Shown: in pieces, positions 906 to 24,980 of the stretch | Layout: each line of letters starts with the position of its first letter | How positions within the stretch are numbered: position 1 is the stretch's first letter | Assembly: GCA_003133625.1 (NCBI GenBank) | Contig: PKYH01000027.1 | Span: 15,266 to 66,084, forward strand | Source of the DNA: Candidatus Bathyarchaeota archaeon | GTDB lineage: Archaea; Thermoproteota; Bathyarchaeia; Bathyarchaeales; Bathycorpusculaceae | DNA length: 50,819 bases | Direction: 5' to 3' | Notes under the pieces: generated by a model | Told to the model about the DNA's origin: nothing | Databases searched by the model: none | The model's input: the letters and a program-made list of their open reading frames with translations, nothing else | Made by a program: the position numbers and the translations under genes

Positions 906-937
906 TCATTGAAAAAAGAAAAGTGAGGGTTTGCGGT

Positions 938-2071: not shown

Positions 2072-2093
2072 TTTTTAGCGCCTCTGTTGATTA

Positions 2094-3053: not shown

Positions 3054-3194
3054 TTACATTTTGCTCCTGTTTTTTGTTTCTTTTATAAGGCTGCCTTGTC
3101 TTTTGCCTTTTCGCGTTTACGGAATTACGCTGTTAGAGATATAATTTTCGGCTATAAAATAAATATCTCTCGCTGCCTTTCCATTGCATGGAAA

Positions 3195-3704: not shown

Positions 3705-3715
3705 GACATTCCTGC

Positions 3716-4081: not shown

Positions 4082-4121
4082 TTAGAACCCCAAAGTAAAT
4101 ACGTATCAATACTTATATAAC

Positions 4122-4439
4122 TTGGTTACTGCGAAAATTGCAGGTAGGTCGTGCCCATTTATGGTTCGAAAGAAAAAAGCTGAAGAATATGAAGCCAAAA
4201 TTAAGCAAGCGTTAGCAGTGCTTGCAGAGGTTTCCGAGGACAGCACAACGCCAAGAAACATCAGGCGTTCCGCAAAAGACGCCTTGAATGCCCTGCAAAG
4301 CCATGAATATACGCCTGCAGTGAGAGCTTCAAACGCCGTGTCGCTTCTTGATGAGATTCTGCAGGACCCAAATATGCCGCCTTACACACGGGTTAAACTT
4401 TGGAACGTTATGAGTTTTATTGAAGCTATAAAAGACTAA
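4122..4439 (+). CDS. UPF0147-family small helical protein
   Basis: Contains TPRNIRRSAKDALNAL, reminiscent of archaeal UPF0147 proteins. The ATG at 4161 (MVRKKK, 92 aa) is the more likely start than the TTG at 4122. Confidence 0.6.
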   Translation: MVTAKIAGRSCPFMVRKKKAEEYEAKIKQALAVLAEVSEDSTTPRNIRRSAKDALNALQSHEYTPAVRASNAVSLLDEILQDPNMPPYTRVKLWNVMSFIEAIKD

Positions 4440-4512
4440 AAAGCCTTCAACAAGCTTTTGTTTAGTTATTTTTAGAGAAAGCGTTCGTATCGCTCACGCT
4501 TGCTTCTCAGTA

Positions 4513-4983
4513 TCATTTAGCTTGTTTAGCCAGCTTCTTTTCTTCCTTATACGAGTAAGCGCAATGTATACAGCAGAACGCTGTCTCCCTGCCATCGATG
4601 ATTTCTCGGTAGCCGCCTTCATAGACTTTGCACCCACAGTGGACGCAGACGTAGAGGCTTGGTTCAATAGCGATTGCTACTAGCTCGGCAAAGCGTTTGA
4701 AAAGACCAGTGCATAATTCTCTTCCTTCTTGTGTCAACTCATAAATTTTTCTTTCTTTTTCCCCTACTGGTTTTATTTTGTGTTTAACTAAGCCTTTTTC
4801 TTCTAGTTGCTGCAGGAACGGGTAAACTAGGCTTGGGCTCACTTCTTTTTTGACTCTTTTTTTGAATCTGCTTATTATGCTATAACCGTGTGTTGGTCCT
4901 TCGTAGAGTATTGTTAGTATATAGAAGCGTGAGAAGTCGGAGATTAATTCATCCATGTTTTCTGGTTTTGTATTGTTGGGCAT
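4513..4983 (-). CDS. PadR-family transcriptional regulator with a C-terminal Cys-rich (TRASH/YHS-like) metal-binding tail
   Basis: PadR winged-helix pattern YILTILYEGPTHGYSIISRFKK ... YPFLQQLEEKGLV. C-terminal CVHCGC...FCCIHC cysteine cluster. Confidence 0.8.
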   Translation of the reverse strand: MPNNTKPENMDELISDFSRFYILTILYEGPTHGYSIISRFKKRVKKEVSPSLVYPFLQQLEEKGLVKHKIKPVGEKERKIYELTQEGRELCTGLFKRFAELVAIAIEPSLYVCVHCGCKVYEGGYREIIDGRETAFCCIHCAYSYKEEKKLAKQAK

Positions 4984-11044: not shown

Positions 11045-11599
11045 TTAGCCTCGTAAGTTTAGAGGTTTTTTGAATATTTCTTCTCGCCACTTGTGTTCCC
11101 AACTTGCCCAACCGGTCTTCACGAGGCTTTCTCTCAAGCGCGGTCTTTCGGCTACCCACTCCAGAAACGTCCAGAAGCGTCTCTCATCTTGAAGTATTTC
11201 CTTCGGCACGCCTTTTTCAACGCACCATCTAATATAGCCGCTTTCAACCATCTGCTTAAGTTCGCCTGTGGATTCGACTTTTTGAACTTTGAACCCTCTG
11301 CTTTGCAAGTGCCCAATTACGCTGGATAAAACGTATTCTGAACAAACCTTAAAACAGGTTTCTGAGTCAGGCTGCATGACTGCGACGATTTCATCGGCAA
11401 TCTTTACCGCGTCATCTAAGTATTTCTTGTTTTTGAAGTTTGGCGGCTGGAAGGATGATGTGGGGATTCTGCGTTCCATCACCATGGGGTCTGGGGGTTT
11501 AAGCGCGCCTACTACCACGCCTAATAAGAGGTCGCTCCATCCTGAAGCATCTATTAAAATCGTTTTTCCAGAAAAGTAACCGTCCAATGCCAAGCTCAA
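11045..11599 (-). CDS. hypothetical protein
   Basis: 184-aa ORF with normal globular composition. No motif recognised. Confidence 0.5.
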   Translation of the reverse strand: MSLALDGYFSGKTILIDASGWSDLLLGVVVGALKPPDPMVMERRIPTSSFQPPNFKNKKYLDDAVKIADEIVAVMQPDSETCFKVCSEYVLSSVIGHLQSRGFKVQKVESTGELKQMVESGYIRWCVEKGVPKEILQDERRFWTFLEWVAERPRLRESLVKTGWASWEHKWREEIFKKPLNLRG

Positions 11600-11989
11600 T
11601 CACCACAGACTGTGAAATATTATGAGGCGTTTGTTTTTCTACTTTTTGTTTTGTACCCATTTTTCATTTCGAACAATAAGCTTTTTTGATGCTGTTTTGT
11701 GGAGCGATTGCGTTCTCGTTATTATGTGTTTTAGTGTTGTGAGAAGAAGTAGGGTAAGTAGGAGTAGGATAGTGGAAAAAGGTTTGGGTTTGAGGATATG
11801 GCTTTATGAGAGTACGAAGCCGATTATTAGACCTACTATGAACCCAATTCCGAGCGGCAATATACCTATGAGGATTCGCCAAATATGCGTAATGAAGGAC
11901 GATAAGCTTGGCAGCGGAACAACAGAAGCTTTTTCATGAAGCTTAAGTAGCAGAAGCAAGTGTAGTAAAATCCAGAAAAAAGCATGGAG

Positions 11990-12058
11990 CGGGGCTCGTC
12001 GTCTAGTACGGATTATGACACCGGCCTGCTTTTTTGGTTCGTTTTCTATTTCAGTCAT
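11990..12058 (-). pseudogene. Int(N) stub: first 23 codons of the element integrase, separated from the rest by integration
   Basis: MTEIENEPKK-QAGVIIRTRRRAP. The last 13 residues are att-encoded and identical to residues 9-21 of the 24009..24962 ORF. After the repeat the frame runs into unrelated flank sequence (ORF 11804..12058). Confidence 0.8.
11991..12029 (+). repeat. attL: orphan copy of the 5' half of tRNA-Arg(GCG)
   Basis: GGGGCTCGTCGTCTAGTACGGATTATGACACCGGCCTGC is identical to 24901-24939. Identity stops on both sides (11990 c vs 24900 g; 12030 t vs 24940 g). No tRNA 3' half follows. Confidence 0.9.
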
Positions 12059-12121
12059 TTTTCAAACCTCATTGGTAGAAGCAATGGCAATTTGGGCTTA
12101 AAAGGCTTGCTTATCTTGGTA

Positions 12122-12643
12122 TTACCAGTCTGAAGAAGAGATTTCAGCTATCTTTACTGAAAAAACTTCGCTCAATATTGAAAAGGCCAACTCAGTTAAT
12201 TTAATGTCTCTCGGTTCGTCAGGCGATTTTTCACCATGAAAAAAGTTGCAGCGTATTACGTAAATCGCCTCAAGAACCTCACCAAAGTTCACGAGGTTGG
12301 CGATTCTTACTTCTCTACTTCCATTATACGGCTTGTTTCTGTATATTGGACATAGGCTCTGAAGGGCTAAAACCTTCTCTTTGAACGTATTGTTATTGGC
12401 AATTAGCTCTGAGTACTTTTGTTTTAACGCTGGATTTTCCTTCGCCCATTCTATTTTGTCCCTGTCTGATTCTTCTTGTGACTCGTATGTCTCCCATGCA
12501 TTGAAAGAAATCCATAGTGAGGCAAATTTGTCGAATATATCAAACTCTCGAATATTTTCGCCTTGAGACCGACGATACCAGTCCGATATGAGCTTTCTTA
12601 AACGTGAATGGTACATCCAGTTTGCGATTATGGCAAGGGGCAT
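12122..12643 (-). CDS. HEPN-like protein (candidate RNase / abortive-infection-type effector)
   Basis: R-x4-H motif in IRCNFFHGEKSP near the C-terminus of an all-helical 173-aa protein. No adjacent nucleotidyltransferase partner. Confidence 0.55.
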   Translation of the reverse strand: MPLAIIANWMYHSRLRKLISDWYRRSQGENIREFDIFDKFASLWISFNAWETYESQEESDRDKIEWAKENPALKQKYSELIANNNTFKEKVLALQSLCPIYRNKPYNGSREVRIANLVNFGEVLEAIYVIRCNFFHGEKSPDEPRDIKLTELAFSILSEVFSVKIAEISSSDW

Positions 12644-12781
12644 ATCAACCGTTGGTATATTATTTAATCGTGCCTTATTAGAACTCTCTAATGAAAAGCG
12701 TATTCAGAGTAGCTTACCCTTTTTTTGGGTCAAATGAAAAAGTGGCACTTAGTTTTGTTAAACAACTTTACGAGTTGCTTG

Positions 12782-14476
12782 TCAACTTTGCTTCTTGTTC
12801 TTTCTTGTCATCACAATTAACGTAACAGCTATTATTGAGGCTACAATCGCAACAATTATCACATAAACTAACCACGGTTCAGAAAGTATTCCATTTGATG
12901 ACGAGCTCGACATTGCAGAGTTTAAATCTACAGCTATTTGATGAGTGCTATGGTGATAATAGAATGATATTGCCCATGAATCTGTTTGCTGTTGAACACT
13001 ATAGCTGAGTGGGGTTCCATCGAGAAATACTTGCAAGTTTGAGATGTCATTTATCAGACTTTTTGGAATGTAAACATTGACATAGCCTGTTGTCCCTGAA
13101 GGACCTGATACTGTGAAGCTTATCTGATTTGATGTTGAGTTAAAAGCGAAAGCTGAAACCGTCGAGTTTGATGCCACTGAGAAGACGTTTTGCTCTTCAA
13201 AAGGCAACACAGCAAAATTAACTATACTGCTGCTTTCAGAGTAATTGGAATTTCCTGCATACGTTGCTCTAAGAAGATAGTTTCCCGTTACAGACGGCAA
13301 CCAAACAGCAGAAAAACTTCCGCTGCTATCTGCACTCACAGTCGTAAGGTCATTCCAAGAATTGCCTTCGTTAACGCTGTAAGAAAGCAGAATTGAAACA
13401 CCAGACAAACTTACCCCATCAGAGGTTATATTTCCACTAATTTCTACGTTGAAGTTCGAGTAACTTGTAGAACTTAGGCAGGAAATGGCAATCGTAGGCG
13501 TTGGCAATAGACTTTGAATTGGTGTAGATGTGGGAGTTGGTGTTGGCGTTGGAAAAGGACTTGATACCGGGAACGTGGGTTGAGGAGTGAGCGGAATTAG
13601 ACTTGGCGACATGAACGGATAATTATCCTTGTTGTTAGAATTAATTATGTATGGCAAGTCACCTATCCCGTCGCCATTAGCATCTTTTCCTGTATAATCA
13701 CTCCAATAGTTTCCACCGATAGAAGTGCCGTTGTCCCACTTGTTACTATCTGAATAATTATAAAGCTGTGCTTGAACTCCATTTCCAAGAATAATGTTGT
13801 GGATAAACATGCTATCGTAGATGTCTATTAAGAATCCATGGCCGTTTCCGGAAATTGTGTTGTTTGCGAATATGTTGTCGTATGAAGGGTCGCCCCCTCC
13901 TGCTCCAATACCGATGTAGTTATTTGAAATCGTATTGTTGAAAATGGCATTGCCATGTGTCCAGTCGAATCCGAGAGACGTGTAAGGATTATTCTCAATC
14001 AAGTTGTTTTCGATTGTGTTACCATAGGAGTGCAGTATGCGGATTCCATCGCCATTATTCGTTATTATGTTGTTTGAAATTATTGTTCTATTGTAGCCGT
14101 CAACCCAAATTGCATTGCCTCCGCTTCTTGCATGTTGTATTGTAAGTCCACCAATTGTTACATCGTTAGCTGAAACAATAATAATGCTCCCAGGGTCTAC
14201 TCCACCAGCATCTATGACTGTCGTTTCTCTGTTTTCACCGAGTAAGGTCAAAGTTTTGTTAATTGTGAGATGCTCATTGTAAGTACCACTCATGACTTCA
14301 ACTGTATCACCGGAACTTGCAGCATTCAAAGCTGCTTGAATAGTCTGAAAATCCTTGTTGCCCTGAGTACTTACAATCCATGTTCTTGCCTGAGATTGAC
14401 CGAAGACATTGACACCACAAGTAATCATTCCCAAGAGCAACATTATGGTGAACAAAGCAAAAACCAATTTCTTCAA
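12782..14476 (-). CDS. secreted, C-terminally membrane-anchored right-handed beta-helix (NosD/PbH1-like) surface protein
   Basis: Signal peptide MKKLVFALFTIMLLLGMITCG. Repeated NN.I..N..GI beta-helix turns, a GGNYWSDYTGKDANGDGIGDLPY motif and a PTPTPTPTSTP linker. Ser-rich Ig-like region, then C-terminal TM helix plus KNKKQS. Confidence 0.8.
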   Translation of the reverse strand: MKKLVFALFTIMLLLGMITCGVNVFGQSQARTWIVSTQGNKDFQTIQAALNAASSGDTVEVMSGTYNEHLTINKTLTLLGENRETTVIDAGGVDPGSIIIVSANDVTIGGLTIQHARSGGNAIWVDGYNRTIISNNIITNNGDGIRILHSYGNTIENNLIENNPYTSLGFDWTHGNAIFNNTISNNYIGIGAGGGDPSYDNIFANNTISGNGHGFLIDIYDSMFIHNIILGNGVQAQLYNYSDSNKWDNGTSIGGNYWSDYTGKDANGDGIGDLPYIINSNNKDNYPFMSPSLIPLTPQPTFPVSSPFPTPTPTPTSTPIQSLLPTPTIAISCLSSTSYSNFNVEISGNITSDGVSLSGVSILLSYSVNEGNSWNDLTTVSADSSGSFSAVWLPSVTGNYLLRATYAGNSNYSESSSIVNFAVLPFEEQNVFSVASNSTVSAFAFNSTSNQISFTVSGPSGTTGYVNVYIPKSLINDISNLQVFLDGTPLSYSVQQQTDSWAISFYYHHSTHQIAVDLNSAMSSSSSNGILSEPWLVYVIIVAIVASIIAVTLIVMTRKNKKQS

Positions 14477-14806
14477 TTACCTCAATCTCCTCTTCACCAT
14501 TTAATTCATTTTGATAAGCTAATAAAACTTGCGTCAATTGTCAAGGAATAGCCCGAATTCTCGCATTAAAGCTGTGTTTGAGGAGGATTCCGCTTTTCTG
14601 GAGATAATACTGTCCATAATATGCAAATGTGGTTTGAAAACAGCAAAAATCCCCTATACTATCTATATGGGAAAAAATGATTTTGGCTTCGCTCCACCTA
14701 TGGGAAACGTTTGACGAATCTGCCCTTTGTATAAAGGTTGAACCCCCAAACCCAAATCAGAAGCATATGGGGTAAAGCGCTTAAAAAAGAACGCAAATAG
14801 AAACAA

Positions 14807-15580
14807 TTAGATTGTAACGCCGTTACTGTGTGCAAATGTTATGATGTCGGTTGATGGTATCCAAATTGAAATAGCGAATCTATCGGTTTGACGCTGTCCT
14901 GTTGTTGGGTGTTTTGCTTGTTGCTTTAGTTCATGTCTCAATCGTTGTCTTCTTTGTTGCCTTGTTTCCCCCATTGTCTGTTGTTGAGGTTGTGGGTTTT
15001 CCGTGATTGACCTATTATGAAGCCCAAAAACAGTGCCGTTTGCTAAGAATCCTGGGCATCCGCTTGAACCTTGGTACATTAAGGCATCAGTTTCATAAAA
15101 GGATAAAACTCTTCCCGAAGGTGTAAGGTCCGCATTGAAAGAAGAAACAAAAGCTCCCTGAAAGCGTATGAAAAGATGGAAACCAGAAGAATCGACCTTA
15201 GCAAGAGGGAAACCTAACGACCCGCAACTCGTTCCAATCTGAATAGTGTTAGTTGCAAGAGCAAGACTTTGAGTAGACCGTGGATTGGTTATTCTTAGAA
15301 GCGCTAAGTCTCTGTCAGCGTCTTCAGCTATTAATTGTGCTATCTCCAATTTTTGTCCAACATCAGGTGCCCTAATAACTCCGAATAGTTGATGTATGGG
15401 GTTGTTGAAGTTGCCTTCTTTATGTATTACGTGGGCTGCTGTTACCACAACACCTGGCGAAATCATAAAAGCGGTACCATTGCTACAAACACCGCCAGTC
15501 CCGACTTTAGTGTCACATCTTATTCCGTAAACACTTTCACGGACTGTTGAACAAGCTTGTTGAAACATAAATTTAACCAA
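14807..15580 (-). CDS. trypsin-like (S1/chymotrypsin fold) serine protease, no signal peptide, Q/R-rich C-terminal tail
   Basis: Triad in canonical order: VVTAAHV (His), RDLALLRI (Asp), QGSSGCPGF (Ser). The tail is NPQPQQQTMGETRQQRRQRLRHELKQQ. Confidence 0.75.
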   Translation of the reverse strand: MVKFMFQQACSTVRESVYGIRCDTKVGTGGVCSNGTAFMISPGVVVTAAHVIHKEGNFNNPIHQLFGVIRAPDVGQKLEIAQLIAEDADRDLALLRITNPRSTQSLALATNTIQIGTSCGSLGFPLAKVDSSGFHLFIRFQGAFVSSFNADLTPSGRVLSFYETDALMYQGSSGCPGFLANGTVFGLHNRSITENPQPQQQTMGETRQQRRQRLRHELKQQAKHPTTGQRQTDRFAISIWIPSTDIITFAHSNGVTI

Positions 15581-16596
15581 ATCAATCCGTTAGTTGAATT
15601 GTTTTTTAAATTTTTGCCTAATTACGTTTCTTTTAGGTTAAACCTATTCTCGATTGCCATTCTTTCTTTTCATCTCTTGATTGCTGACAAGTATGAGCAT
15701 CCTTGGAATCTCACATCCCCCAAAACACAAAAAATCCCCTATATACTATAAAGGGGAAAATACTGTTTTAAGTCGACTGATGACTTTAGCTTTGAACCCC
15801 TATCTTGGATATTATTAATTGGGTGCACAGAGTCCCCGTAAATCCATTTGCGTCCATTTGCTTGCTCTAATTCTTCAAATGCAAAATTTGAGAAAAGTTA
15901 TTGTTTTGCGTAAACTGTAGCCTATTTTTTTGCAAGCATTACTCAATTTTTAACATAAAAACCTCAATTGTGTAAAAAAGTTGCCCTTTTCAACGGTTTT
16001 CCATGAAAATCACGTAACATCCTTTCAGCCATAATGGTTATATCTCGAATCTTGAGTGTTCCATAACATTGCCCGTTCAAGAATGAATGGGACACATGTA
16101 AACGAGGGGACTGAACTTGGTGGCAGTTACACTATGATTAGCCTTGACTCCGCATGTTTCCAACTCGTTCTAATCGGTAAAGAAAAAATGGAGGGAGCAC
16201 AAAACGGAAATAAAATTAGCCGAGAAAAAAGGTCAAGCATATAGTAAATACTATGTTGTTTTAGACCGAAATGGCGACCTTAGTGTATTAGAAGTTAGTC
16301 AAGATGACTGGTCAATTCTAACAATGGTTGAAGTAATGTACAGCAGGCGATTAATTAAACTTGAAACTAAGAAGCAGGTCGTGCAAGAAATATTACACAC
16401 GTTCCTCAAGACCAACTACAGCTCAGATGCAGTAATACAATACAAACTTGAGTATTTAGGGGATTAAGCGCACTGAACATTTGCAATTTAACACAGATTC
16501 TATAGAGGGACTCCTAAACCGAGAAGAGTTTCACTGATGAAATGATGAAATCTCGATTTGCGAAGCACTCATAAAATCAAAAGGAGATATATAAAA

Positions 16597-16812
16597 ATGG
16601 AAAAATTGGATAAAAATGAAATAAACGTCGGCTTCATAGTCCAACTGGATGAGGATGACTGGCGAGAATTAGAATCTATTATAAAAAATAAAGTGAAACG
16701 GCTAATCTTCGTTAAGAAATGCCCAATCACTGTTAAACTGGAAATTAAAGAGAATTTTCCAACAAGGAAGGGAGAAAATGTCACAAAGTTTTGCAACTGG
16801 GAATCCGCTTGA
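16597..16812 (+). CDS. small hypothetical protein (71 aa from ATG 16597)
   Basis: AAGGAG lies 10-15 nt upstream of ATG 16597. Overlaps the start of the next ORF by 35 nt, consistent with coupling. No family recognised. Confidence 0.4.
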   Translation: MEKLDKNEINVGFIVQLDEDDWRELESIIKNKVKRLIFVKKCPITVKLEIKENFPTRKGENVTKFCNWESA

Positions 16813-18028
16813 ACTGGCTAAGCAAATCGGCTATGAACTCTATGATAATATTGGTAAAATTGCTTTTGAAGAACTTGAGCTGGCTTATGCAAGCAGATTA
16901 GCACCTAAATTTGAAAAAGTACCAGAATTGCGTAGTTTCACTAACCTGAATTTCTATTGGGCAAGAGGTTGTTTCAAAAACAGGAGTATAGAAGGATTTA
17001 AAGATTGCTTACCTGAAGATTTCAAACAGAGAAATATTTCAACCGCAACAATTGAGACAATGTTTGGCAGCATAAATGAAAAAGGTAATAAACTCTTTGC
17101 TCCGCTGTTCCATGGATATGAGACATGCTTTATGCCTGAACTGTTAGCATTCTTAGGTAGTTATGAAACCATGAAAGAGAAAGTCAATACTTTCAATGAA
17201 GTTTTAGAAGGCGACCCAACATCAAGAGATATGATAAAATTCAGCAGTGCAAGCGAAGAACTTATTGGAAAATATATGTTGGGTTATGATGGTTTAACTT
17301 TTGATGGCAGACATTTGAAATATGAACCAAACACATCATTTGTAGTTGGCACTCGACCAGTAGAAAATAAAATATACACTTACCTTGAGCAATCAGGATT
17401 CTGGAGCAGATTTCATACAATACAAATAAAGATTACTGATAAAGTTTCAGAGGATATCTTCACGGGCAGTTTCACACCAAACCCAGATGTTGATGTGCAA
17501 AGCCTTAAAAATGAGCTTAAGCTCTGCAATAAAAATCTTTTTGCGCATAGAGATGATATAAATTCTGAACTGCCAAGTTACGAAAAAATAATGATGCCTT
17601 TACTTCAAACAGCTAATGGTTTTTGCAAACAAGTTATGTTGAAAAATCCAATAATTGACAACGTGACCCTATTAAATGTGCGTATTAAAGATGACATACT
17701 TCGAGAAGTCAAAGCTTATCAAATTTTAAATCCTGAGTTAAGCGATGCTGAAATTCATGCGTGGGCTTATGCAAGACTGCCGCATTTCTTTGAATTTGCA
17801 ACTGAACCAATCATAGCCAGAGAAATCACATTTGTTAAAGTAAACTCATTGGAATCTTGCATTAAATCTCTTTGCGAACTCTGCAAGGGTTCACCAAAAG
17901 AACGCGATGAAATACAAGACATACTGCAAAAACAAAGCTTTTCAAGACCAACAATAGACCGAGCAATGGAAAAAATCAAAGAAAACGGACTTGAAAAAAC
18001 CCAAAAACGTGGAGTGTATGAAACATAG
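16778..18028 (+). CDS. orphan 416-aa protein with a C-terminal winged-helix-like segment; candidate replication/partition protein of the element
   Basis: GGGAG lies before the ATG. The long ORF has globular composition. The C-terminal stretch SRPTIDRAMEKIKENGLEKTQKRGVYE looks like a wHTH. Followed immediately by an iteron-like repeat cluster. The function is an inference only. Confidence 0.6.
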   Translation: MSQSFATGNPLELAKQIGYELYDNIGKIAFEELELAYASRLAPKFEKVPELRSFTNLNFYWARGCFKNRSIEGFKDCLPEDFKQRNISTATIETMFGSINEKGNKLFAPLFHGYETCFMPELLAFLGSYETMKEKVNTFNEVLEGDPTSRDMIKFSSASEELIGKYMLGYDGLTFDGRHLKYEPNTSFVVGTRPVENKIYTYLEQSGFWSRFHTIQIKITDKVSEDIFTGSFTPNPDVDVQSLKNELKLCNKNLFAHRDDINSELPSYEKIMMPLLQTANGFCKQVMLKNPIIDNVTLLNVRIKDDILREVKAYQILNPELSDAEIHAWAYARLPHFFEFATEPIIAREITFVKVNSLESCIKSLCELCKGSPKERDEIQDILQKQSFSRPTIDRAMEKIKENGLEKTQKRGVYET

Positions 18029-18031
18029 TTA

Positions 18032-18133
18032 TTCTCAATTCTCTTTTCTCATTTATCTCTTTTTTGAGAAATAGATATTATGGAAATTGAACTTCTCAAA
18101 AGAGGGTAGTTGAGAAATTGAGAAATTGAGAAA
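18032..18133. repeat. iteron-like cluster of six TTGAGAA heptamers (four direct, two inverted)
   Basis: TTGAGAA at 18064, 18110, 18118 and 18126. The last three form a tandem TTGAGAAA x3. TTCTCAA at 18032 and 18093. All lie within about 100 nt, directly after the 416-aa ORF stop. Confidence 0.6.
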
Positions 18134-18224
18134 GCTGAAGGGTTTAGGCTTAGGAGCTCTTGGTAGATTCAACAAATCTGCGGGAGACCCCCTTTTTTAT
18201 TAACATTTACAGAGGTGAAAGCAT

Positions 18225-18470
18225 TTGAAAAAACAAAAACTGTGTAAAATCTGCAACCATGAGCTTGCACCAGCAATTCTCTATCTGCATCTCTTTGAAG
18301 GTTATTCATATAAGAGAATCATCGCAGCCTACGGAAGCTTTATCCCAAATTTGAATTTGTACAATATTTCAAACCACTTAAATTATCATATTTCCATCAG
18401 AGATATCAAAGAGGCAGAAGCTACCAAAGCACGCTGGGAGAAATACAAAGCTCAAGAAGCAGCCGCTTGA
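18225..18470 (+). CDS. small Cys/His-containing hypothetical protein (81 aa)
   Basis: TTG start. CKIC ... HLNYH could form a zinc site. Basic C-terminal helix. A 6-bp hairpin (18481-18497) lies just past the stop. Confidence 0.45.
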   Translation: MKKQKLCKICNHELAPAILYLHLFEGYSYKRIIAAYGSFIPNLNLYNISNHLNYHISIRDIKEAEATKARWEKYKAQEAAA

Positions 18471-18721
18471 AAATTTGCAAAGCTCGACCAGCGAGCTCCC
18501 TTAAGTTAGCCTTTTAAACAAACGAGTCGAGTAATAAGCCAAAGTCTTTAAAGCTTATTCAAAATGGATTTGCATTTAAATTAGCTTTCAAAAAACAACT
18601 TTATTCGCCCATTTATTATTTTAATGCAATAAAATACTGATTATAAATATAGATTTAAAAAACAGATAACATTTATAATCCAACTTTAATATTTGTCTCG
18701 ACTCACCAAGAGGATAAAAAA

Positions 18722-18889
18722 ATGCCACAAAGAATCAGAAAAGAAAGGCACCTATCAAACTGCCAAATAGCCGCAGAAATCAATCCAACAGAATGCCCAG
18801 TTATCACAACAGAAATTAGCAGTTCAAACGGGCCTTCACAAAACAGAAAAGAAGAAGCTAAAAAAATAATCTACCTAAAAAGAATATAA
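18722..18889 (+). CDS. possible small HTH-like protein (55 aa), not in the ORF track
   Basis: ATG preceded by GAGGAT. Reads MPQRIRKERHLSNCQIAAEINPTECPV... The LSNCQIAAEI segment resembles an HTH recognition region. Short, so weakly supported. Confidence 0.3.
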   Translation: MPQRIRKERHLSNCQIAAEINPTECPVITTEISSSNGPSQNRKEEAKKIIYLKRI

Positions 18890-19361
18890 AACATTAGCTC
18901 ACGATTTGCTGTTCACTTGCAGCCATGCTTTTCTTCACTACGCTTCAATCTCTCTTCAAGTCTTCTATTTCGTTCTTTCTTCTCAAGCCCAACCAATGGA
19001 GCCATCGCAAGAGCAGTAAGACCTCGCCCAATTTTCCTGAATAAGTTCATAAAGCCTTCCCCTTTCTCCTCTGAGAAATCTGACGATTTCAAGTTCTTAA
19101 AGAAAGTTTCTAAAATTGAAATATATCTTGTATTGGAACATCCCGTTAAGCCCTCAAAGTTATATCAATCGATTAGTGCGAAATAACAAATGTCTACCCA
19201 CGTGCTCCCTTTAAGCTCCTAAACAACTTTAAAAAAACTAAAATTTCACTACCAAAGAAATTCCCTACCAGCGTTTTTCTGCTGGCGAATATCGATACCC
19301 CCACATGCTACTTAGTAGCAATAAGGCATTTGGTCAGATGGGTTAGACAATTAGAGGTTTC

Positions 19362-20228
19362 TCACGCTATCTTTTTCAATGAAAAGTGTCCTTTCGTTTT
19401 TTCATCAATAATATCGCCTGAAATTTCACTGGCACTTTTTGACAACATTCCTGAAAGTGCATCAAGATTATATTCATTAGCGGCTCCCTGCTTTACAAAA
19501 GTATATGAAACACCTTGTAACATCACGAAGAAGTCTTGTATTGTGCCCATCATTGATTCTTGCACGATAGCCATACCTTTATCCGTTGAATAACAGACTA
19601 TCATAGTTCCCGATATTTCAGAACCTTTTTGGGAAAGGTCAATCTTTATTTCGTATTTATCATCCTCCAAAATCATGTCTCCTTCCCAGATACCGGCTAT
19701 ATTTTGTATATTTTTTACAACTTTAGATGGAGTTGATTCTTTCTGTTTATAGGGGTTTATCCCTGTAACTGCAATACCCTCAAAGACTGTGCCATATTCG
19801 GTTTCTTTCAATACGCTTTGAATCATTTCTGTAAGATTGCTTTTTAGATTGTCGCCCCAAGCAGGATTATTAATGTCATAGTAGAGATACCTTAGAGCTT
19901 TCAGGTCAAACGGGACATCCTTCTCATTGCGGGTAATGATAATGGCGGGTTTACCAAGTGCATGGGCAAGTCCGAGTTCATAGAACACATTTATATTTTT
20001 GCCGGACAGTTCTGCAATAACCATCCTTGAAGACCTTAAGGCTTTCCAAATGTCGGCAGTAACTTGAGGTTTAGAATAAATCTCGTCAGCTCTTACACAC
20101 TTTAGTCCAGCCAATTCAATTGCTGGACGTATTATACTACTATATTCTGAATCAAAAACAGAACTAAACGGCATAATAACAAAACAAGTATCTTTTAAAT
20201 CTCCGAGCTCAATCTCTACCTTTGCCAT
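19362..20228 (-). CDS. nucleoside 2-deoxyribosyltransferase / TIR-like Rossmannoid domain protein with an unknown C-terminal domain
   Basis: N-terminal about 140 aa: CFVIMPF ... VRADEI ... VIAELSGKNINVFYELGLAHALGKPAIIIT. This matches the (D/N)xG/NxxxE-LG-xA-xAxGKP core of deoxyribosyltransferase/deoxyribohydrolase-like folds. The C-terminal about 130 aa looks beta-rich and is unassigned. Confidence 0.6.
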   Translation of the reverse strand: MAKVEIELGDLKDTCFVIMPFSSVFDSEYSSIIRPAIELAGLKCVRADEIYSKPQVTADIWKALRSSRMVIAELSGKNINVFYELGLAHALGKPAIIITRNEKDVPFDLKALRYLYYDINNPAWGDNLKSNLTEMIQSVLKETEYGTVFEGIAVTGINPYKQKESTPSKVVKNIQNIAGIWEGDMILEDDKYEIKIDLSQKGSEISGTMIVCYSTDKGMAIVQESMMGTIQDFFVMLQGVSYTFVKQGAANEYNLDALSGMLSKSASEISGDIIDEKTKGHFSLKKIA

Positions 20229-20398
20229 CTAAATCAATTCCCTCTCGAACGCATTGCTATCAATTGTAAGCAAATAGCAGAAAAGGCTTTCGATGACACT
20301 TGCAACAGCGAGCTTAAAAAATTGGGCAAGTCATCATGTTTTTCACCTTTAGCGTTATGACGTTTTCTTCGTTGTCAACATCTTGTATTAAGTTTTTA

Positions 20399-20462
20399 AA
20401 ATTGGTGCTCTACCAAATTGGTGCTCGGAAATCCACTTCTCTCTGAAAAGTAGCACCAAATT
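20399..20462. promoter_or_regulatory. candidate operator: three copies of the 11-mer AAATTGGTGCT (two direct, one inverted) next to a TTTTTAAAA TATA-like box
   Basis: AAATTGGTGCT at 20399-20409 and 20415-20425. AGCACCAAATT at 20452-20462. Ends 11 nt before the AbrB-like ATG (20474). Confidence 0.55.
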
Positions 20463-20473
20463 AGGTTCACAAC

Positions 20474-20659
20474 ATGATAGAGAGCGAAGGCAAATTCATT
20501 AATCGACCAACACAGACGGGCGGAAAAACCTATGATAAATTCTTCATTTATGTTCCAACGGAAGTTGCAAGAGACAGCTTGTTCCCTTTTAAGACAAACG
20601 ATAGAATCAAAGTCAAGATTGATGTTGAGAATAAAAAGCTCACAATAGAGAAGATATAG
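20474..20659 (+). CDS. AbrB/SpoVT-like small DNA-binding protein
   Basis: 61 aa. FIYVPTEVARDSLFPFKTNDRIKVKIDVENKKLTIEK resembles the swapped-hairpin AbrB/MazE pattern (IPKEIR..LGL..GD.V.I....G.I.I.K). Confidence 0.5.
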   Translation: MIESEGKFINRPTQTGGKTYDKFFIYVPTEVARDSLFPFKTNDRIKVKIDVENKKLTIEKI

Positions 20660-20722
20660 AGTAAGACGTTACTTGATAGTCAAGAATATAGTTTCTTTGG
20701 GCACATTAATGCAACAAAGCGT

Positions 20723-21577
20723 TTAACAGTTGCATTTTTCTATCCATTTTTTAATTTCCGCTTTTAGAGCATCCATTGATTCTTTAGGCCAATTTGGGTC
20801 ATTTTCGCAAATCCTAAGTGCTTGTTCAAAATTTTCTCTGGCAATTTCTTTTTTTCCAAGCTCCAAGTTAATTAGACCTAACCATAAAAAATGATTATAA
20901 TGCCCAGTTGAGTCAAACTGTGCTAAGAATTCACAATAACGTTTGGTAGTATCTACGTCTTTATGTTGGTCATAATAACGTATAAGCGAGTAAAGGCATT
21001 GTCTTACATTCTCTCGAATTAGTATTAATTCATGTTCGGTTCGTGGGCAATCAGGCAACTGTTTTACGTAACCATCGCCTTTGAATGTAGGTTGCCCTCT
21101 AAATAGCTCTATTGAAGCCTTGTCATCTTTGATTTTCGTGATAAAGCTTTCGTTCTTATCTTTTCCTTTTTCTAAAATATTTGACCTGTCAAATGTTAAA
21201 TAGAGTGAATCTGTATCCGTTTTAAATATTCTTTCCAAGAGCTCATATCTATGGTCTTCGATAGACATCCAATAACAATTTCCGCTTGGTTCATCATATA
21301 CGATAAGGTAGACAGGGTTTGGTTCCCATAACCAATATACCAATGTTGATTTCTTTATGCTTGCACTCCAATTGTCATCAAAATGTTCTGTTCCTTTTGC
21401 TTGTATGTAGAACTCATTTGTTGGAGAGCTATTCTCTAATAATTGGCAATAAAAATCAAGTCCTACGTCATCTTCAATTTTAGTTACCAAGGAAAAATAA
21501 GATAAGCGACCTTTTATTTCGCTTTCACCCACTTTGCCTAATCGTTGCTCCCACGTAAATCTCACATTACGCACCAT
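20723..21577 (-). CDS. DUF4365-like (PD-(D/E)xK nuclease fold) N-terminal domain fused to a TPR-like C-terminal domain
   Basis: GKVGESEIKGRLSYF...EDDVGLDFYCQL....EFYIQAKGT matches the G.xGE...D.GxD...(V/I)Q.K(G/A)T pattern of DUF4365. The C-terminus has TPR-like helices (WLGLINLELGKKEIARENFEQALRI). Confidence 0.6.
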   Translation of the reverse strand: MVRNVRFTWEQRLGKVGESEIKGRLSYFSLVTKIEDDVGLDFYCQLLENSSPTNEFYIQAKGTEHFDDNWSASIKKSTLVYWLWEPNPVYLIVYDEPSGNCYWMSIEDHRYELLERIFKTDTDSLYLTFDRSNILEKGKDKNESFITKIKDDKASIELFRGQPTFKGDGYVKQLPDCPRTEHELILIRENVRQCLYSLIRYYDQHKDVDTTKRYCEFLAQFDSTGHYNHFLWLGLINLELGKKEIARENFEQALRICENDPNWPKESMDALKAEIKKWIEKCNC

Positions 21578-21700
21578 TAGAAGTACCCACTGCAGAGATT
21601 ATTCGATTAATAGTTAAAAATTTATGGCAAAATAACCAGATACTCTAAGTTCTTTGGTCTACCAGCGAGCGTTGTCAAGGTATGCCTAATTCGCGCTCGT

Positions 21701-21925
21701 TTATTTTTTATTATTCGTTTTGTCTTTGGGGTAGACTATCTTCATTTTGTTTGGGTTATGATTGCGACAGAAATAAAGCCAAAAATCACCATGTTCCACA
21801 ATGAGTTCTGCTCTTTGTCCACATGTGGGTATGTCGCAAAAAGCTTTCGGTAAATCCCTTATAACCTCATCATAAGAACTTGTTTTAGGTCTAACCATTA
21901 ACACACTCTCAGTATTACCATACAA
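21701..21925 (-). CDS. small Cys/His-containing hypothetical protein
   Basis: 74 aa. CDIPTCGQ ... FCRNH may form a zinc-ribbon-type site. Same strand as the DUF4365-like gene and 123 nt upstream of it. Confidence 0.4.
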   Translation of the reverse strand: MYGNTESVLMVRPKTSSYDEVIRDLPKAFCDIPTCGQRAELIVEHGDFWLYFCRNHNPNKMKIVYPKDKTNNKK

Positions 21926-22050
21926 TTATTTTTAGATAAATAATTTATGATACTAACTCACATAGATGCGTTTGCTATAAAGAAAGGTTCCGTTTTTCAA
22001 AAATAAGTTAAAACGAGTCAAAAAGGTTCATTAAAGAAAAAAAGGTGAGA

Positions 22051-22122
22051 CTATTTGCGCTTTCTAAACAGCTTAATGCCTTCCATTTCTGTGACGTACT
22101 CGAAGCCTTGCTCAATGAGCTT
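22051..22122 (-). pseudogene. relic of a second integrase gene (last 23 codons only)
   Basis: The reverse strand reads KLIEQGFEYVTEMEGIKLFRKRK*. The intact integrase ends KLIEQGFEYVTEMDSIKLFRKRK*, so 21 of 23 residues are identical, with an estimated 70 percent nt identity. An in-frame TAA lies immediately upstream. Confidence 0.75.
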
Positions 22123-22194
22123 TTAGTATTTTCGGCGCTATGCGTATTCTTTTAATTTATTTTCTTTATAGGCAGGGTCTACTTAATCATCCCA

Positions 22195-22773
22195 ATGGAA
22201 TTTATAATAAAGAATAGTCGCATCGTTGAAGATATAATAGGAAAAAACACAGAATTTCCAAAATACACAACGCAAATCATGAATTTGGCTAACCAGAACG
22301 CTCAAGGAACGAGACCTAAAGTAGTAGGTCAAATGTCTGATTTAATTGAGGAATGCCCCAAAGGAACCTATGAACAGTGGGTCAACTGGTATTCCCAAAG
22401 GATGCCTCAAGCAGTGGATGAGGCAACCGAAAAAGTATTTGAAATGATTCGGAATCTTGCATCCGCAATCACACTAATCGATAAGGAACTTGTAAGGAAA
22501 TGGGTCGAAGACTTGGTCTTAACTAAAACTTTTACAGGTTTCTGTTTTCAAGAAAGCATTCTAAAAGCGGTCGCCAAAAGAAAATGGGTTCAATACCGAA
22601 GGTCTACTCCGGAAGAAGAATCAAAATTTATTGACGGATACATCGGCGATATTCCCGTCTCAATTAAGCCCGTCACATACAAGACCAAAGGTATGTTACA
22701 CGAAAACATCAATGTCAAACTTATCTATTATGAGAAACTAAAAGATGGAATTAGGGTCGAATACGACTTCTAA
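22195..22773 (+). CDS. putative type II restriction endonuclease (possibly MjaI-like family)
   Basis: Convergent with the methyltransferase, with overlapping stop codons. Possible PD-(D/E)xK-like segment IDGYIGDIPVSIKP. The N-terminal FPKYTTQIMNLANQNAQGTRPKVVGQ recalls small archaeal REases, but that is from memory and unverified. Confidence 0.55.
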   Translation: MEFIIKNSRIVEDIIGKNTEFPKYTTQIMNLANQNAQGTRPKVVGQMSDLIEECPKGTYEQWVNWYSQRMPQAVDEATEKVFEMIRNLASAITLIDKELVRKWVEDLVLTKTFTGFCFQESILKAVAKRKWVQYRRSTPEEESKFIDGYIGDIPVSIKPVTYKTKGMLHENINVKLIYYEKLKDGIRVEYDF

Positions 22774-23882
22774 TCTGAGTCTAACCAATCCTTGAGTGAT
22801 TTCCCCTTTTGAGTTAGACTTCCTCCATCAAATTTAAAGGAAGGCTTTTCCTCATATTCAGCTTCAATTGTATCATCCTTAGACAGTACTCTTCTAAGTT
22901 CATCAAACGTAATTTCTACTTCTTGACTTGTCATCACTGGAAAACCGTAAACTTTGCTCGCATATTTCAATTCACCTTTCACTTTAGTGCGTTCTTGAAC
23001 AAATTTTAGGTGATTTATCATTCTATTTCTTAACAAATTATTGGAAAAACTAACAATATCCTTGAACCTCTCAGAAAGATGCTCACTGAAGTTAGGGTCT
23101 ATCTCAATTCCCACACTGTTTCTTCCAGTAGCAATTGAAGCTAAGGTTGTGGTTCCTGTGCCAAGAAATGGGTCGAGTACTGTGTCTTCTCTGAGAGAAA
23201 ACATGTTAATCAAACGATAGGCAAGCTCGAACGGATAAGCTCCACTGCGCTCTCTAATCTTTTTGTCAAGGTCTGTCTGTCGGGTTCCCTTAAGACCTTC
23301 CCACACATCTGAAAACCAGACATTTCGCTCTTCCCAAAAGAATGAGCTTTTTTGTCTTCTCAGTTTATCTTCTATTTTGACAAACTCTCTTTTAGTTCCT
23401 TTTCGCAAAACCAGAATATACTCATGCTCTAAAGTAATGTATGCACCTGCGGGAAGCATACCCGACCCCATGAACTTGTTGGGAGCATTCGTTTGTTTTC
23501 TCCATAAAATTTCAGGCAAAGAACTAAAGCCCAAGTTCAAACAGCTTTGCAGTATTCTTGAGTGATTGGAATAGAGTTTGAACTCTTTTCCTATTTTTCG
23601 AGTTGCGTCACCAATGTTGATGCATGCAATTCCACCTTGGCGAAGGACCCTATAGACTTCTTTCCAGATTTTATCAAGCTCTTGGTTCATTAATTCGTAC
23701 GCTTGATTTCCATCTTCATTTCTTAATGCTTCGCCTATTCTGGGATTTTGTTTGGAGAAAATGTCATCCCACATTTCAATCATTGGATAAGGTGGCGAAG
23801 TAATCATCAAATCTATAGATTGGTCTTTAATCTGCTTCATTTCGTTGGAGTTGCTGAAAAATATCTTGTGAGTAGTTTTCAT
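22770..23882 (-). CDS. DNA methyltransferase, beta-class N4/N6 (SPPY motif suggests N4-cytosine)
   Basis: Motif IV DLMITSPPYP precedes motif I VLDPFLGTGTTTLAS (beta permutation). Also has the N6_N4_Mtase-like GGIACINIGD segment. Confidence 0.9.
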   Translation of the reverse strand: MKTTHKIFFSNSNEMKQIKDQSIDLMITSPPYPMIEMWDDIFSKQNPRIGEALRNEDGNQAYELMNQELDKIWKEVYRVLRQGGIACINIGDATRKIGKEFKLYSNHSRILQSCLNLGFSSLPEILWRKQTNAPNKFMGSGMLPAGAYITLEHEYILVLRKGTKREFVKIEDKLRRQKSSFFWEERNVWFSDVWEGLKGTRQTDLDKKIRERSGAYPFELAYRLINMFSLREDTVLDPFLGTGTTTLASIATGRNSVGIEIDPNFSEHLSERFKDIVSFSNNLLRNRMINHLKFVQERTKVKGELKYASKVYGFPVMTSQEVEITFDELRRVLSKDDTIEAEYEEKPSFKFDGGSLTQKGKSLKDWLDSD

Positions 23883-24008
23883 TGCAATCTTCTTCTGCGA
23901 CTCGGTTTAAAAAGCTCTTCGCTCGTGCTTCTTAGTATTTATTTTTAGAAAACCTCCGACTGTCTCAACTTGCTTTCCTCTCGACTTTTAATCGTGAATG
24001 GAAAAAAT

Positions 24009-24962
24009 TCATTTCCGTTTCCTAAATAGCTTGATTGAATCCATCTCAGTAACATATTCGAAACCTTGCTCTATGAGTTTCTGCGCTTCCTTGATATTTT
24101 GGGCTACTTTGCAGGTGTATTCTTCTTCGCTGTCGAAGTGTATTAGCTGTGCGTAGAATAGTGTAGTTTCGTATTTTGTGTGTCCCATTTGTTGCATAGT
24201 GAAAAACATATCTTTGGTTTTGTCATAGGTGAGGGTTGCGAATTTGTGTCTAAGATTTCTTAGCGGTATTTTTTTAAGTTCTGGTTGCTGTAGTTTGTCG
24301 GCTAATTCGTTTCTGGTTCTCATCCATATTTCGCTCATGTAGTGTGTTTCTGGGAATGGTTGATTATCGGTGTATTTGTTTAGGTAGTGTCTTAACATTT
24401 CTGCGGTTTCTGGTTTTAGTTTGAATGAACGTGATTTGTGTCCTTTGCATCCTTGAGCGTTAATTATTCCTTTTTCTATGTCTATGTCTTTTTGTGTTAT
24501 GTTTCTTAGTTCTTGTTCCTCTAATCCTGTTTCGTCTAAGATTCTAAAAATAGTTGCGTATTTTTTGGATGAGGCTGATATTATTTTATTGACGTTTTCG
24601 CTTGATGGTATTAGCGGGATTTTTCTTTGATATTTAAAGTGTGTTTCTAATCGTTGGAGTCCATTTACGTCTGTGAAATAATTGTATGCTTTTACCATTT
24701 GTTGCTTGTAGCTGTTGGCTTGTGTCATTGTTGCGATAAACGCTTTGACTTGTTCGGGTTTCATTAGGTCGGTGTTTTTGTCTAAGTATTTTAGTTGGTA
24801 GTTGACTGCTCGTAGTGTTCCTTGTTCTAATCCGTTGCTTTTCATTGTGAGTAAGGTTTTTATGATTTCAGGTTCGTATTTGTAGCATAATACGGTGCTG
24901 GGGGCTCGTCGTCTAGTACGGATTATGACACCGGCCTGCGGAGCCGGAGGTCCTGGGTTCAA
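24009..24962 (-). CDS. int: tyrosine recombinase / integrase, SSV-type, Int(C) part
   Basis: C-terminal catalytic region NLRHKFATLTY ... MGHTKYETTLFYAQL (R-H ... GH ... Y). Residues 9-21 (QAGVIIRTRRRAP) are encoded antisense to the att repeat. Residues 1-8 are encoded antisense to the tRNA 3' half, so they are fortuitous. Confidence 0.85.
   Translation of the reverse strand: MNPGPPAPQAGVIIRTRRRAPSTVLCYKYEPEIIKTLLTMKSNGLEQGTLRAVNYQLKYLDKNTDLMKPEQVKAFIATMTQANSYKQQMVKAYNYFTDVNGLQRLETHFKYQRKIPLIPSSENVNKIISASSKKYATIFRILDETGLEEQELRNITQKDIDIEKGIINAQGCKGHKSRSFKLKPETAEMLRHYLNKYTDNQPFPETHYMSEIWMRTRNELADKLQQPELKKIPLRNLRHKFATLTYDKTKDMFFTMQQMGHTKYETTLFYAQLIHFDSEEEYTCKVAQNIKEAQKLIEQGFEYVTEMDSIKLFRKRK
24901..24939 (+). 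repeat. attR: repeat copy embedded in the intact tRNA-Arg gene
   Basis: Identical to 11991-12029. Confidence 0.9.
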
Positions 24963-24980
24963 ATCCCAGCGGGCCCGCCA
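24902..24980 (+). tRNA. tRNA-Arg (anticodon GCG) with encoded CCA
   Basis: Folded by hand. Acceptor GGGCTCG/CGGGCCC with one G-U pair. Anticodon stem CCGGC/GCCGG, loop CTGCGGA (anticodon GCG at 24938-24940). Variable loop AGGTC. T arm CTGGG-TTCAAAT-CCCAG. Discriminator G plus CCA. The D arm is less regular. Confidence 0.85.

Follow-up and report, generated by a model that had tools for sequence, protein, structure and literature searches.

Positions 11991–24939 of the window (the whole 50,819-nt stretch of archaeal DNA analysed here, to which all coordinates refer) hold an element of ~12.9 kb that has inserted into the 5′ half of a tRNA-Arg(GCG) gene and whose own integrase gene (int) is divided between its two ends. 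That the element is integrated and its int gene split we hold with high confidence. The fuller account of how this came about is, in our judgement, very probable. A circular, plasmid-like cryptic element would have entered the chromosome by site-specific recombination, catalysed by a tyrosine recombinase, between an attachment (att) site in the 5′ end of its own int (attP; codons 10–23, antisense to the tRNA) and, on the chromosome, the tRNA-Arg(GCG) gene in its 5′ half. The crossover would lie in or near the anticodon loop, and integration would part int from its promoter and start codon at a cost of nine unique residues, making the integrase a ‘suicidal’ one.

Insertion into tRNA-Arg(GCG) and the split integrase gene

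Two exact copies of a 39-mer, GGGGCTCGTCGTCTAGTACGGATTATGACACCGGCCTGC, are found in the window, at 11991–12029 and 24901–24939. The bases adjoining each copy differ on both sides, and hence identity breaks off at once. No third copy exists in the window at up to three mismatches, and none is expected (100 shuffles). ARAGORN detects a sole tRNA in the window, tRNA-Arg(GCG) at 24902–24980 on the plus strand, which Rfam model RF00005 matches with 59 bits; at the left copy of the repeat, Rfam sees no tRNA. Relative to this tRNA, the repeat begins at position −1 and ends on the second base of the anticodon (24938–24940). Comparison of the repeat and junctions identifies the left copy (attL, plus strand) as the host's own tRNA 5′ half, which lies behind the original host upstream region and has no 3′ half, and the right copy (attR, plus strand) as the element-derived 5′ half, now joined to the 3′ half from the host. 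An earlier, sequence-only reading of this DNA had described the perfect repeat with abrupt ends, the tRNA half at its right copy and the missing 3′ half at its left, and each of these points is borne out. The direct repeat is part of a tRNA, one end of the element carries a re-formed tRNA, and relatives have the site empty (below); this is a tRNA-targeting integrative element.

The integrase is encoded on the minus strand, in an open reading frame (ORF) at 24009–24962 that passes through attR into the tRNA. Near the opposite end, a second, short minus-strand ORF (11804–12058) starts with an ATG at 12058 and runs through attL into host DNA. Joining the ends in silico as they would meet in a circle (24900|att|12030) gives one unbroken ORF of 319 aa, with the start MTEIENEPKKQAGVIIRTRRRAPSTVL and the ATG at 12058. 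Both copies of att are read in one frame, which gives integrase residues 10–23. Two homologs whose N-termini are native, P0023 and P0057, have the length of the reconstituted protein, 319 aa. The left part, int(N) (11991–12058, minus strand), consists of the ATG at 12058 and nine unique codons (MTEIENEPK), followed by codons 10–23 from att. The right part, int(C) (24009–24939, minus strand), comprises codons 10–319 and contains all the folded parts, and its ORF in the integrated state extends to a TTG at 24962. Codons 10–23 fall in a tail predicted to be disordered: residues 1–27 have a predicted local distance difference test score (pLDDT) below 50, and the first helix begins at residue 32. 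Thus, int(C) retains all folded domains and loses only the promoter, the start codon and nine residues. With attP inside the int ORF and int(N) and int(C) at the ends of the element, the architecture is that of an SSV-type, or suicidal, integrase.

In the integrated form, the frame of int(C) is free of stops across the tRNA (24940–24962, minus strand) as far as a TTG antisense of the T-loop (GATTTGAAC), and many integrated homologs likewise begin with LNPG or MNPG. The integrated copy might therefore still allow translation of an almost complete integrase. For excision, the integrase would have to come from elsewhere in trans, or the nearly full-length int(C) would have to be expressed from the flank. 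We also considered P0057 and P0023, with their native-looking N-termini, as free forms, but the contigs that encode them either have a chromosomal appearance or are not long enough for a decision.

The host is a Bathyarchaeia archaeon, with a LysRS gene (9316–10917) that has 76–97% identical orthologues in 80 Bathyarchaeia metagenome-assembled genomes, mainly from peat, bog and soil. The usual gene order in these relatives is LysRS, tRNA-Arg(GCG), PhoU-like, CofD, MoaE, S3Ae, SerRS, and this is the ancestral order. In the window, LysRS lies to the left of the element, and PhoU-like, CofD, MoaE, S3Ae and SerRS lie to its right; the previous identification of both flanks as core genes (lysK; cofD, moaE, rps3ae) is thereby confirmed. 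The locus of the closest relative (L001, 95–97% identical at the nucleotide level) aligns with 11874–12029 and then continues into a complete tRNA, with a single att copy. In two others, L004 (87%) and L062 (93%), the tRNA is joined directly to the right flank, the alignments running from 24901/25100 to 29735 of the window, PhoU through SerRS. These empty sites substantiate the earlier claim of site-specific integration. The cargo genes of the element were found at the tRNA-Arg site in 0 of the 80 syntenic Bathyarchaeia loci. Because L001 lacks the element at 95–97% identity, the insertion must be recent.

Base composition likewise distinguishes the element from its flanks. Its GC content is 0.374, compared to 0.432 for the host, and the tetranucleotide distance of 4-kb segments to the host profile is 0.0247 inside versus 0.0120 ± 0.0017 outside, with no overlap between the two sets (Mann–Whitney p = 2e-8). 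GC alone was rejected as a boundary marker: low GC reaches to ~28 kb, yet the genes at 25–28 kb are housekeeping genes outside the element. Tetranucleotide distance marks the boundary better. The ORF that spans attR (P0001) is found on three contigs (NCBI, ENA), and an identical interior fragment of the element (L166) comes from a different JGI sample; the junction is therefore not a one-off product of assembly. A separate look-up of contigs encoding P0001 returned no record. Between LysRS and attL, at 11045–11939, there are two ORFs (184 aa, minus strand; 105 aa, plus strand) without a family match. They are shared only with L001, which has ~1 kb and 0.4 kb of extra DNA there, and this segment may be a remnant of yet another insertion.

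The integrase has the architecture of the SSV type but the sequence of another protein family. Among the aligned family members, 26/26 match PF00589, and only 2/26 match PF16795, with a best E value of 0.005, below the cut-off. As a positive control, SSV1 Int matches PF16795 at 1.5e-61. Aligning the family profile to SSV1 Int with hhalign gives a probability of 0.35%. The closest solved structures by sequence are those of XerA (4A8E, 3e-19; 5HXY, 3e-15), and the closest folds by Foldseek are XerA (E = 6e-12), IntI4, Tn1549 Int, XerH and Cre. The SSV1 Int chain is absent among PDB sequence matches with E ≤ 10 and among the top 50 Foldseek matches listed. Hence, this protein does not belong to the sequence family of SSV-type integrases (PF16795, ‘Superfamily 25_02’ in PMC8371274). 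Judged by its sequence, the integrase is suicidal by architecture and lies outside the SSV-type protein family.

The tyrosine-recombinase fold is present, and residues K175, R240, H263 and Y272 are invariant in the family. At the position of the catalytic Arg-I, however, there is Glu150 (codon 24452–24454), as seen in three independent alignments (with XerA, PF00589 and SSV1 Int). The close family has Glu at this position in ≥90% of cases, sometimes Ala, and the His-II position is occupied by Arg237 (codon 24191–24193). When 150 wider representatives were considered, 98 had Arg in the Arg-I column. Arg or Lys at His-II was seen in 48/61 of those without Arg-I versus 11/98 of those with it, in counts that ignore kinship. 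It is plausible, from this covariation, that a relocated basic residue compensates for the lost Arg-I. Perfect att duplications in several elements argue that these integrases are active. An extra β-α-β module follows Tyr272 in the predicted model (residues 284–318; 24009–24119, minus strand) and is conserved in sequence (EEEYTCKTA...GF.Y.TE.DG.KLFRKRK).

The family is large, with at least 369 representatives of 50%-identity clusters at E ≤ 1e-30, and occurs mainly in sediment and peat archaea such as Bathyarchaeia. Of 87 database homologs of at least 295 aa, 38 start with NPGxPxPQA, which is a tRNA read in antisense, and several others start with related peptides from tRNA 3′ ends, e.g. GFEPR. 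Across 80 metagenome loci, a tRNA at the 5′ end of the integrase gene was antisense to it in 33/33 detected cases. Detection depends on settings: without intron mode, ARAGORN missed most neighbouring tRNAs, and intron mode recovers more, although isotype calls for intron-containing genes are unreliable. At 37 loci of the family, ARAGORN detected no tRNA. Three loci (L087, L089 and L090) have both att copies (35–36 nt, from tRNA position 0/1 to 34–36) together with an Int(N) ORF; L087 and L089 target tRNA-Pro(GGG), with att corresponding to tRNA positions 1–36, and L090 targets tRNA-Arg(GCG). The split architecture is thus a property of the whole integrase family. Bounded elements of the family elsewhere are only 2–7 kb in length. 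Many family integrases adjoin intron-containing tRNA genes (P0014, P0019, P0031, P0033, P0102; L093, L095, L099, L101, L124 and others), and in the read-through peptides at such genes, extra residues separate the part that stems from the tRNA 3′ end from that of the 5′ end.

Other elements occupy the same chromosomal site. In L090 (Ga0187886_1012001), from another peat sample, a different element of 4.4 kb (540–4977) lies at this site behind an identical left flank, and so related hosts carry different elements here. Its integrase is 85% identical but truncated, and it also encodes a DNA methylase, a membrane protein and a protein of 461 aa in which a box-I-like motif, GARASEL, is found. Decayed relic elements are present at the same place in L002, L003, L012 and L024. 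The interval LysRS–tRNA-Arg–PhoU is a hotspot on both sides of the tRNA. The gap between tRNA and PhoU measures 2.7–7.9 kb in L008, L015, L022 and L062, and that between LysRS and tRNA 6–9 kb in L026, L027 and L070. Inserts downstream of the tRNA are possibly elements that use its 3′ half.

One alternative is that the element is a dead relic, an old and immobile defence island in which the int halves are pseudogenes. The integrase is split and has no canonical Arg-I, the hotspot contains decayed relics (L002, L003, L012, L024) as well as the truncated integrase of L090, and a junction scan of IMG/VR found no circular form, all of which would fit this idea. Yet the att copies still agree at 39/39 positions, the int halves join without a frameshift or stop, the composition remains strongly foreign, and the insertion is recent, given its absence from L001. 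We consider a relic of this kind unlikely and prefer integration of a plasmid-like element, as set out at the start.

Cargo genes and the nature of the element

Listed ORFs cover ~73% of the element. Reading from attL, the first is a 173-aa protein (12122–12643, minus strand) with an R-x4-H motif (RCNFFH) like that of HEPN proteins. It is followed by a 564-aa right-handed β-helix protein (NosD/Beta_helix; 12782–14476, minus strand) that bears a signal or anchor segment at its N-terminus and a transmembrane segment at its C-terminus and whose C-terminal half is 58% shared with the element in L167, and by a serine protease of the Pfam family Trypsin_2 (14807–15580, minus strand), which resembles the protease domains of the defence proteins RT-Protease, LmuA and Avs1b. 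An 84-aa ORF (16558–16812, plus strand), 70% conserved in the L167/L170 element, overlaps the start of a gene for a 416-aa protein (16778–18028, plus strand) with a predicted MCM-like AAA+ domain and C-terminal winged helix, a candidate replication helicase. Next come an 81-aa Cys/His-rich ORF (18225–18470, plus strand; 45% in L167, 42% in L002) and a conserved segment of ~400 bp (18904–19306), which is 76–80% identical to the relic elements L002, L003 and L024. A 288-aa protein (19362–20228, minus strand) has an N-terminal domain resembling TIR or nucleoside 2-deoxyribosyltransferase (NDT) domains and is matched by PADLOC as a TIR effector (1.9e-12).

Further to the right lie a 61-aa ORF (20474–20659, plus strand), ‘AbrB-like’ by eye only and 69% identical to an ORF in L167; a 284-aa protein with a restriction-endonuclease-like DUF4365 domain and TPR (20723–21577, minus strand; Pfam), a 40% homolog of which adjoins a family integrase in L125; and a 74-aa Cys-rich ORF (21701–21925, minus strand) with no profile match. 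The last genes before int are those of a type II restriction–modification (R-M) system of the MjaI kind (22195–23882), which converge and overlap: the restriction endonuclease (22195–22773, plus strand; Pfam RE_MjaI, 5e-66; PADLOC REase_II) and its partner, an N6/N4 DNA methyltransferase (22770–23882, minus strand; Pfam N6_N4_Mtase, 7e-41; PADLOC MTase_II, 5e-151). Searches of PHROGs, PADLOC, NCBIfam and Pfam gave no match for the 173-, 84-, 81-, 74- and 61-aa ORFs. The cargo named in the sequence-only reading largely stands: the tyrosine recombinase, the R-M pair, the protease, a nuclease-like protein (Pfam) and the TIR/NDT protein (PADLOC) are all recovered, whereas its HEPN assignment comes down to the R-x4-H motif. 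Judging from gene content, the R-M pair and the TIR-like, protease, DUF4365-nuclease and HEPN-like proteins would provide the benefit that the element brings to itself or to its host.

For the 416-aa protein, the AF2 model has a pLDDT of 88, and Foldseek returns 364 PDB matches at E ≤ 1e-3; all 50 of the 50 matches listed are MCM chains or replisome complexes that contain MCM. An SRF (Arg-finger-like) motif and a Walker-B-like Glu are invariant. Pfam finds no MCM domain in this protein, and as read from its sequence, the N-terminal OB/zinc domain of MCM is absent. In its free state, the element would be replicated with the help of this AAA+/winged-helix protein, if the predicted structure is a guide to function. 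The conserved segment at 18904–19306, with counterparts in L002 (15210–15606), L003 (11616–11928) and L024 (12983–13321), has no Rfam match and contains two candidate small ORFs without codon-position bias. It may act in cis, for instance as an origin.

The element in L167–L170 shares with this one the 84-aa ORF, the MCM-like protein, the 81-aa ORF, the C-terminal half of the β-helix protein and the 61-aa ORF, and yet its integrase is only 27% identical. These data argue for a modular backbone with an exchangeable integrase module. In L167 (1–3126, 7781–14606), the element with the MCM-like backbone adjoins a block that encodes a D5_N/DUF5906 primase-helicase and a 377-aa zinc-ribbon integrase, an arrangement that suggests tandem or nested elements.

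Could the element be a provirus, spindle-shaped or of another archaea-specific type, with structural genes too divergent to recognize? The β-helix protein would then be a virion depolymerase or receptor-binding protein. There is a precedent in Huangdivirus, a spindle-shaped provirus of Bathyarchaeia that encodes a tyrosine integrase and a predicted polysaccharide lyase (PMC10848311). Moreover, a signal or anchor segment is present in the β-helix protein, a related element conserves the C-terminal half of this protein, and ~27% of the element is without an assigned ORF. However, a scan for capsid-like ORFs with two hydrophobic helices found none outside overlaps with real genes, no PHROG structural protein matches anything in the element, and IMG/VR and GenBank phages contain no relative of either the integrase or the MCM-like protein. 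In protein mode, GenBank phages yielded only integrases of ≤27% identity and nothing for the MCM-like protein. The sister bounded elements, at 2–7 kb, are also small for viruses. By PHROG, the helix scan and the virus databases, rather than by structures of every ORF, virion hallmarks are absent, and a provirus is in our view quite unlikely. Conjugation genes were not detected by Pfam. With an integrase, a predicted MCM-like replication protein and neither virion nor conjugation genes, the element fits the description of an integrative plasmid or cryptic integrated element (CIE), and it is probably plasmid-like in nature, as the sequence-only reading had somewhat favoured.

The displaced tRNA promoter and apparent traces of earlier integrations

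When an element integrates into a tRNA gene, it is normally the 3′ part that is used, and the gene keeps its own promoter. The usual explanation for the rarity of integration into the 5′ half is that the gene would be severed from its promoter. Use of the 5′-distal part has been described as ‘considerably less frequent’ (PMC6563490). Here, att corresponds to the 5′ half, and the host promoter is thus left behind at attL with half a tRNA; transcription of the complete tRNA at attR has to come from element DNA.

The DNA upstream of the re-formed tRNA is the antisense strand of int codons 24–45. It contains a TATA-like box, GGTTTTTATGAT, at 24855–24866 (plus strand), antisense to codons I35-I36-K37-T38; relative to the tRNA 5′ end, the box occupies −47 to −36. 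A T/A-rich box at the same distance is present in the native DNA upstream of tRNA-Arg in relatives. Across 74 dereplicated genes of the family, the antisense of these codons reads AGT(A/G)TTTATTAT. Codon choice at these positions is unusual: the I36 codon is ATA in 90% of cases, versus 51% elsewhere in the same genes (Fisher p = 5e-11); the N37 codon is AAT in 59% versus 15% (p = 2e-13); and the T38 codon is ACT in 59% versus 7% (p = 6e-27). These atypical codons point to a constraint at the nucleotide level, by statistics that ignore kinship. We lean towards the view that the box, antisense within int codons 35–38, is an element-borne promoter from which the tRNA at attR would be transcribed.

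We searched the antisense-translated 330 nt upstream of tRNA-Arg in 63 relatives with a hidden Markov model (HMM) of integrase residues 24–110, which leaves out the part encoded by the tRNA. The strongest match was L002 (E = 2e-35), with ~100 collinear codons kept, followed by L012 (E = 1.5e-14), with ~68, and L026 (E = 2e-5). About 18 more genomes gave matches with E = 1e-4 to 3e-3, always collinear, at HMM positions 5–25 and 18–80 nt from the tRNA. In the controls (sense strand, downstream antisense), the best E value was 1.3. The short fossils are carried by L004–L006, L008–L010, L013–L015, L017, L019–L022, L024, L029, L049, L053 and L062 and amount to ~14 residues each (13–20 bits). The relics span int codons ~28–48 and encode the peptide GRIVNTLLKLKNSGL followed by stops, the family consensus being IINTLLKxKxxGL. 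The short fossils derive mostly from one ancestor and therefore represent approximately one event, to which the separate relics L002, L012 and L026 are added. This decay series suggests that an earlier integration replaced the tRNA promoter and that a fragment of int was then kept. In many Bathyarchaeia, the GRIVNTLLKLKNSGL fossil has apparently been retained as the promoter region of tRNA-Arg(GCG).

These similarities could also have arisen in the reverse direction, the 5′ region of int (the attP arm) having been captured from a host tRNA with its promoter, such that the ‘fossils’ are the original promoter. The fossil matches are indeed short and mostly from one ancestor, and attP does hold host-like tRNA sequence, but IINTLLKxKxxGL is also conserved in family integrases with different targets, among them tRNA-Pro(GGG) and tRNAs with introns, and forms the first helix of the predicted fold, on which grounds this direction is less likely; in addition, L002 and L012 keep ~100 and 68 collinear codons in a decay series, and other Bathyarchaeia have unrelated upstream regions, e.g. 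AGCGTTTATATTG, leaving capture from the host very unlikely.

The joint proposal is that of a 5′-half-targeting integrase family with a rearranged active site that carries an antisense tRNA promoter within its gene, fixed as the host's promoter after decay in a clade of Bathyarchaeia. Taken as a whole, it falls just short of an even chance. Several points weigh against the account of the element given at the start, the promoter included. The promoter role rests on sequence only; the synonymous signal, in which kinship is ignored, could reflect another overlapping function, such as an integrase arm site or RNA structure; and GGTTTTTATGAT fits a TATA box less well than the consensus of the family, TTTATTAT, does. 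Glu at the Arg-I position poses the question of how catalysis would proceed. In the MCM-like protein, YWxRSYFKN stands at the place of the P-loop and a canonical Walker A motif is absent, so helicase activity is uncertain; the protein may bind and hydrolyse ATP by means of an unusual loop, or it may be a derivative that binds DNA and has no catalytic role. Finally, the exact attP junction does not occur in IMG/VR, and no free circular form was found.

Relation to known systems

An attP inside int, with the gene partitioned on integration, defines the ‘SSV-type’, ‘type I’ or ‘suicidal’ integrases (She et al. 2002/2004; Badel et al. 2020, PMC7253208; review PMC8371274). Suicidal integrases have been described as the product of a single event within one superfamily (PF16795), confined to archaea and mostly to hyperthermophiles (PMC8371274). 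A search of the literature available to us found no report of a split or suicidal integrase in Bathyarchaeia. This element resembles those of the SSV type (Fuselloviridae, pTN3, pT26-2) in that attP lies in the int ORF, the target is a tRNA, and int(N) and int(C) flank the element; att is typically 40–50 bp in the SSV type, and the 39 bp seen here is close. pTN3 is cited as recombining with the 5′-distal part of its tRNA (PMC6563490). The differences are several. SSV-type integrases belong to PF16795, whereas this one belongs to PF00589 and is XerA-like. The att site of SSV1 lies at about codons 64–78, compared to codons 10–23, in a disordered tail, here. Further differences from the SSV type are the antisense orientation of int relative to the tRNA and the Glu found at Arg-I. 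The hosts of SSV-type elements are mostly hyperthermophiles, whereas the peat and bog Bathyarchaeia are presumably mesophilic, given the sources of the samples.

Closer in overall character are the CIEs of Thaumarchaeota, which are likewise integrase-bounded islands at tRNA genes, with a median size of 17 kb, no viral hallmarks, R-M genes and sometimes MCM (Krupovic et al. 2019, PMC6563490). The size of our element lies within the range common among them. Among them, NitEve-E3 has a split SSV1-like integrase, and CalSub-E1 uses the 5′-distal part of a tRNA (PMC6563490). These elements differ from ours in host class and integrase family, and here targeting of the 5′ half is the rule for the family, with the promoter apparently in int. 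The best label for the element is plasmid-like cryptic integrated element, as defined for Thaumarchaeota (PMC6563490).

Archaeal XerA (4A8E, 5HXY) is the closest solved relative of the integrase in both sequence and fold. XerA is a chromosomal resolvase acting at dif sites with a canonical Arg-I, whereas the protein described here serves an element as its integrase and has Glu in the Arg-I position and Arg in that of His-II. It also differs from XerA in its disordered, att-encoded N-terminal tail and its extra C-terminal β-α-β module. MCM helicases have been recruited by archaeal plasmids, viruses and integrated elements. The 416-aa protein resembles them in its AAA+ core and C-terminal winged helix (TM ~0.5 to archaeal and eukaryotic MCM); unlike them, it has no Pfam match, no N-terminal OB/zinc domain and a degenerate Walker A motif, and it is only 416 aa long.

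The element is ordinary in kind, and its novelty lies in the integration module: a non-SSV, self-splitting family, antisense targeting of the tRNA 5′ half, and an apparent in-gene promoter with its fossils. The sequence-only reading was right about site-specific integration and overlooked the split of int, the non-SSV integrase family and the displaced tRNA promoter. A second, unrelated self-splitting family in soil and sediment archaea would show convergence, and the architecture would therefore likely be adaptive rather than a historical accident. The active site, with Glu in place of Arg-I, is of interest to recombinase enzymology. If the promoter is indeed dual-coded inside int, this would provide a concrete mechanism by which a tRNA gene hit in its 5′ half is preserved. 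And if the int fossils upstream of tRNA-Arg are what they appear to be, they would represent a case in which an essential host gene has permanently adopted the DNA of a mobile element as its promoter.

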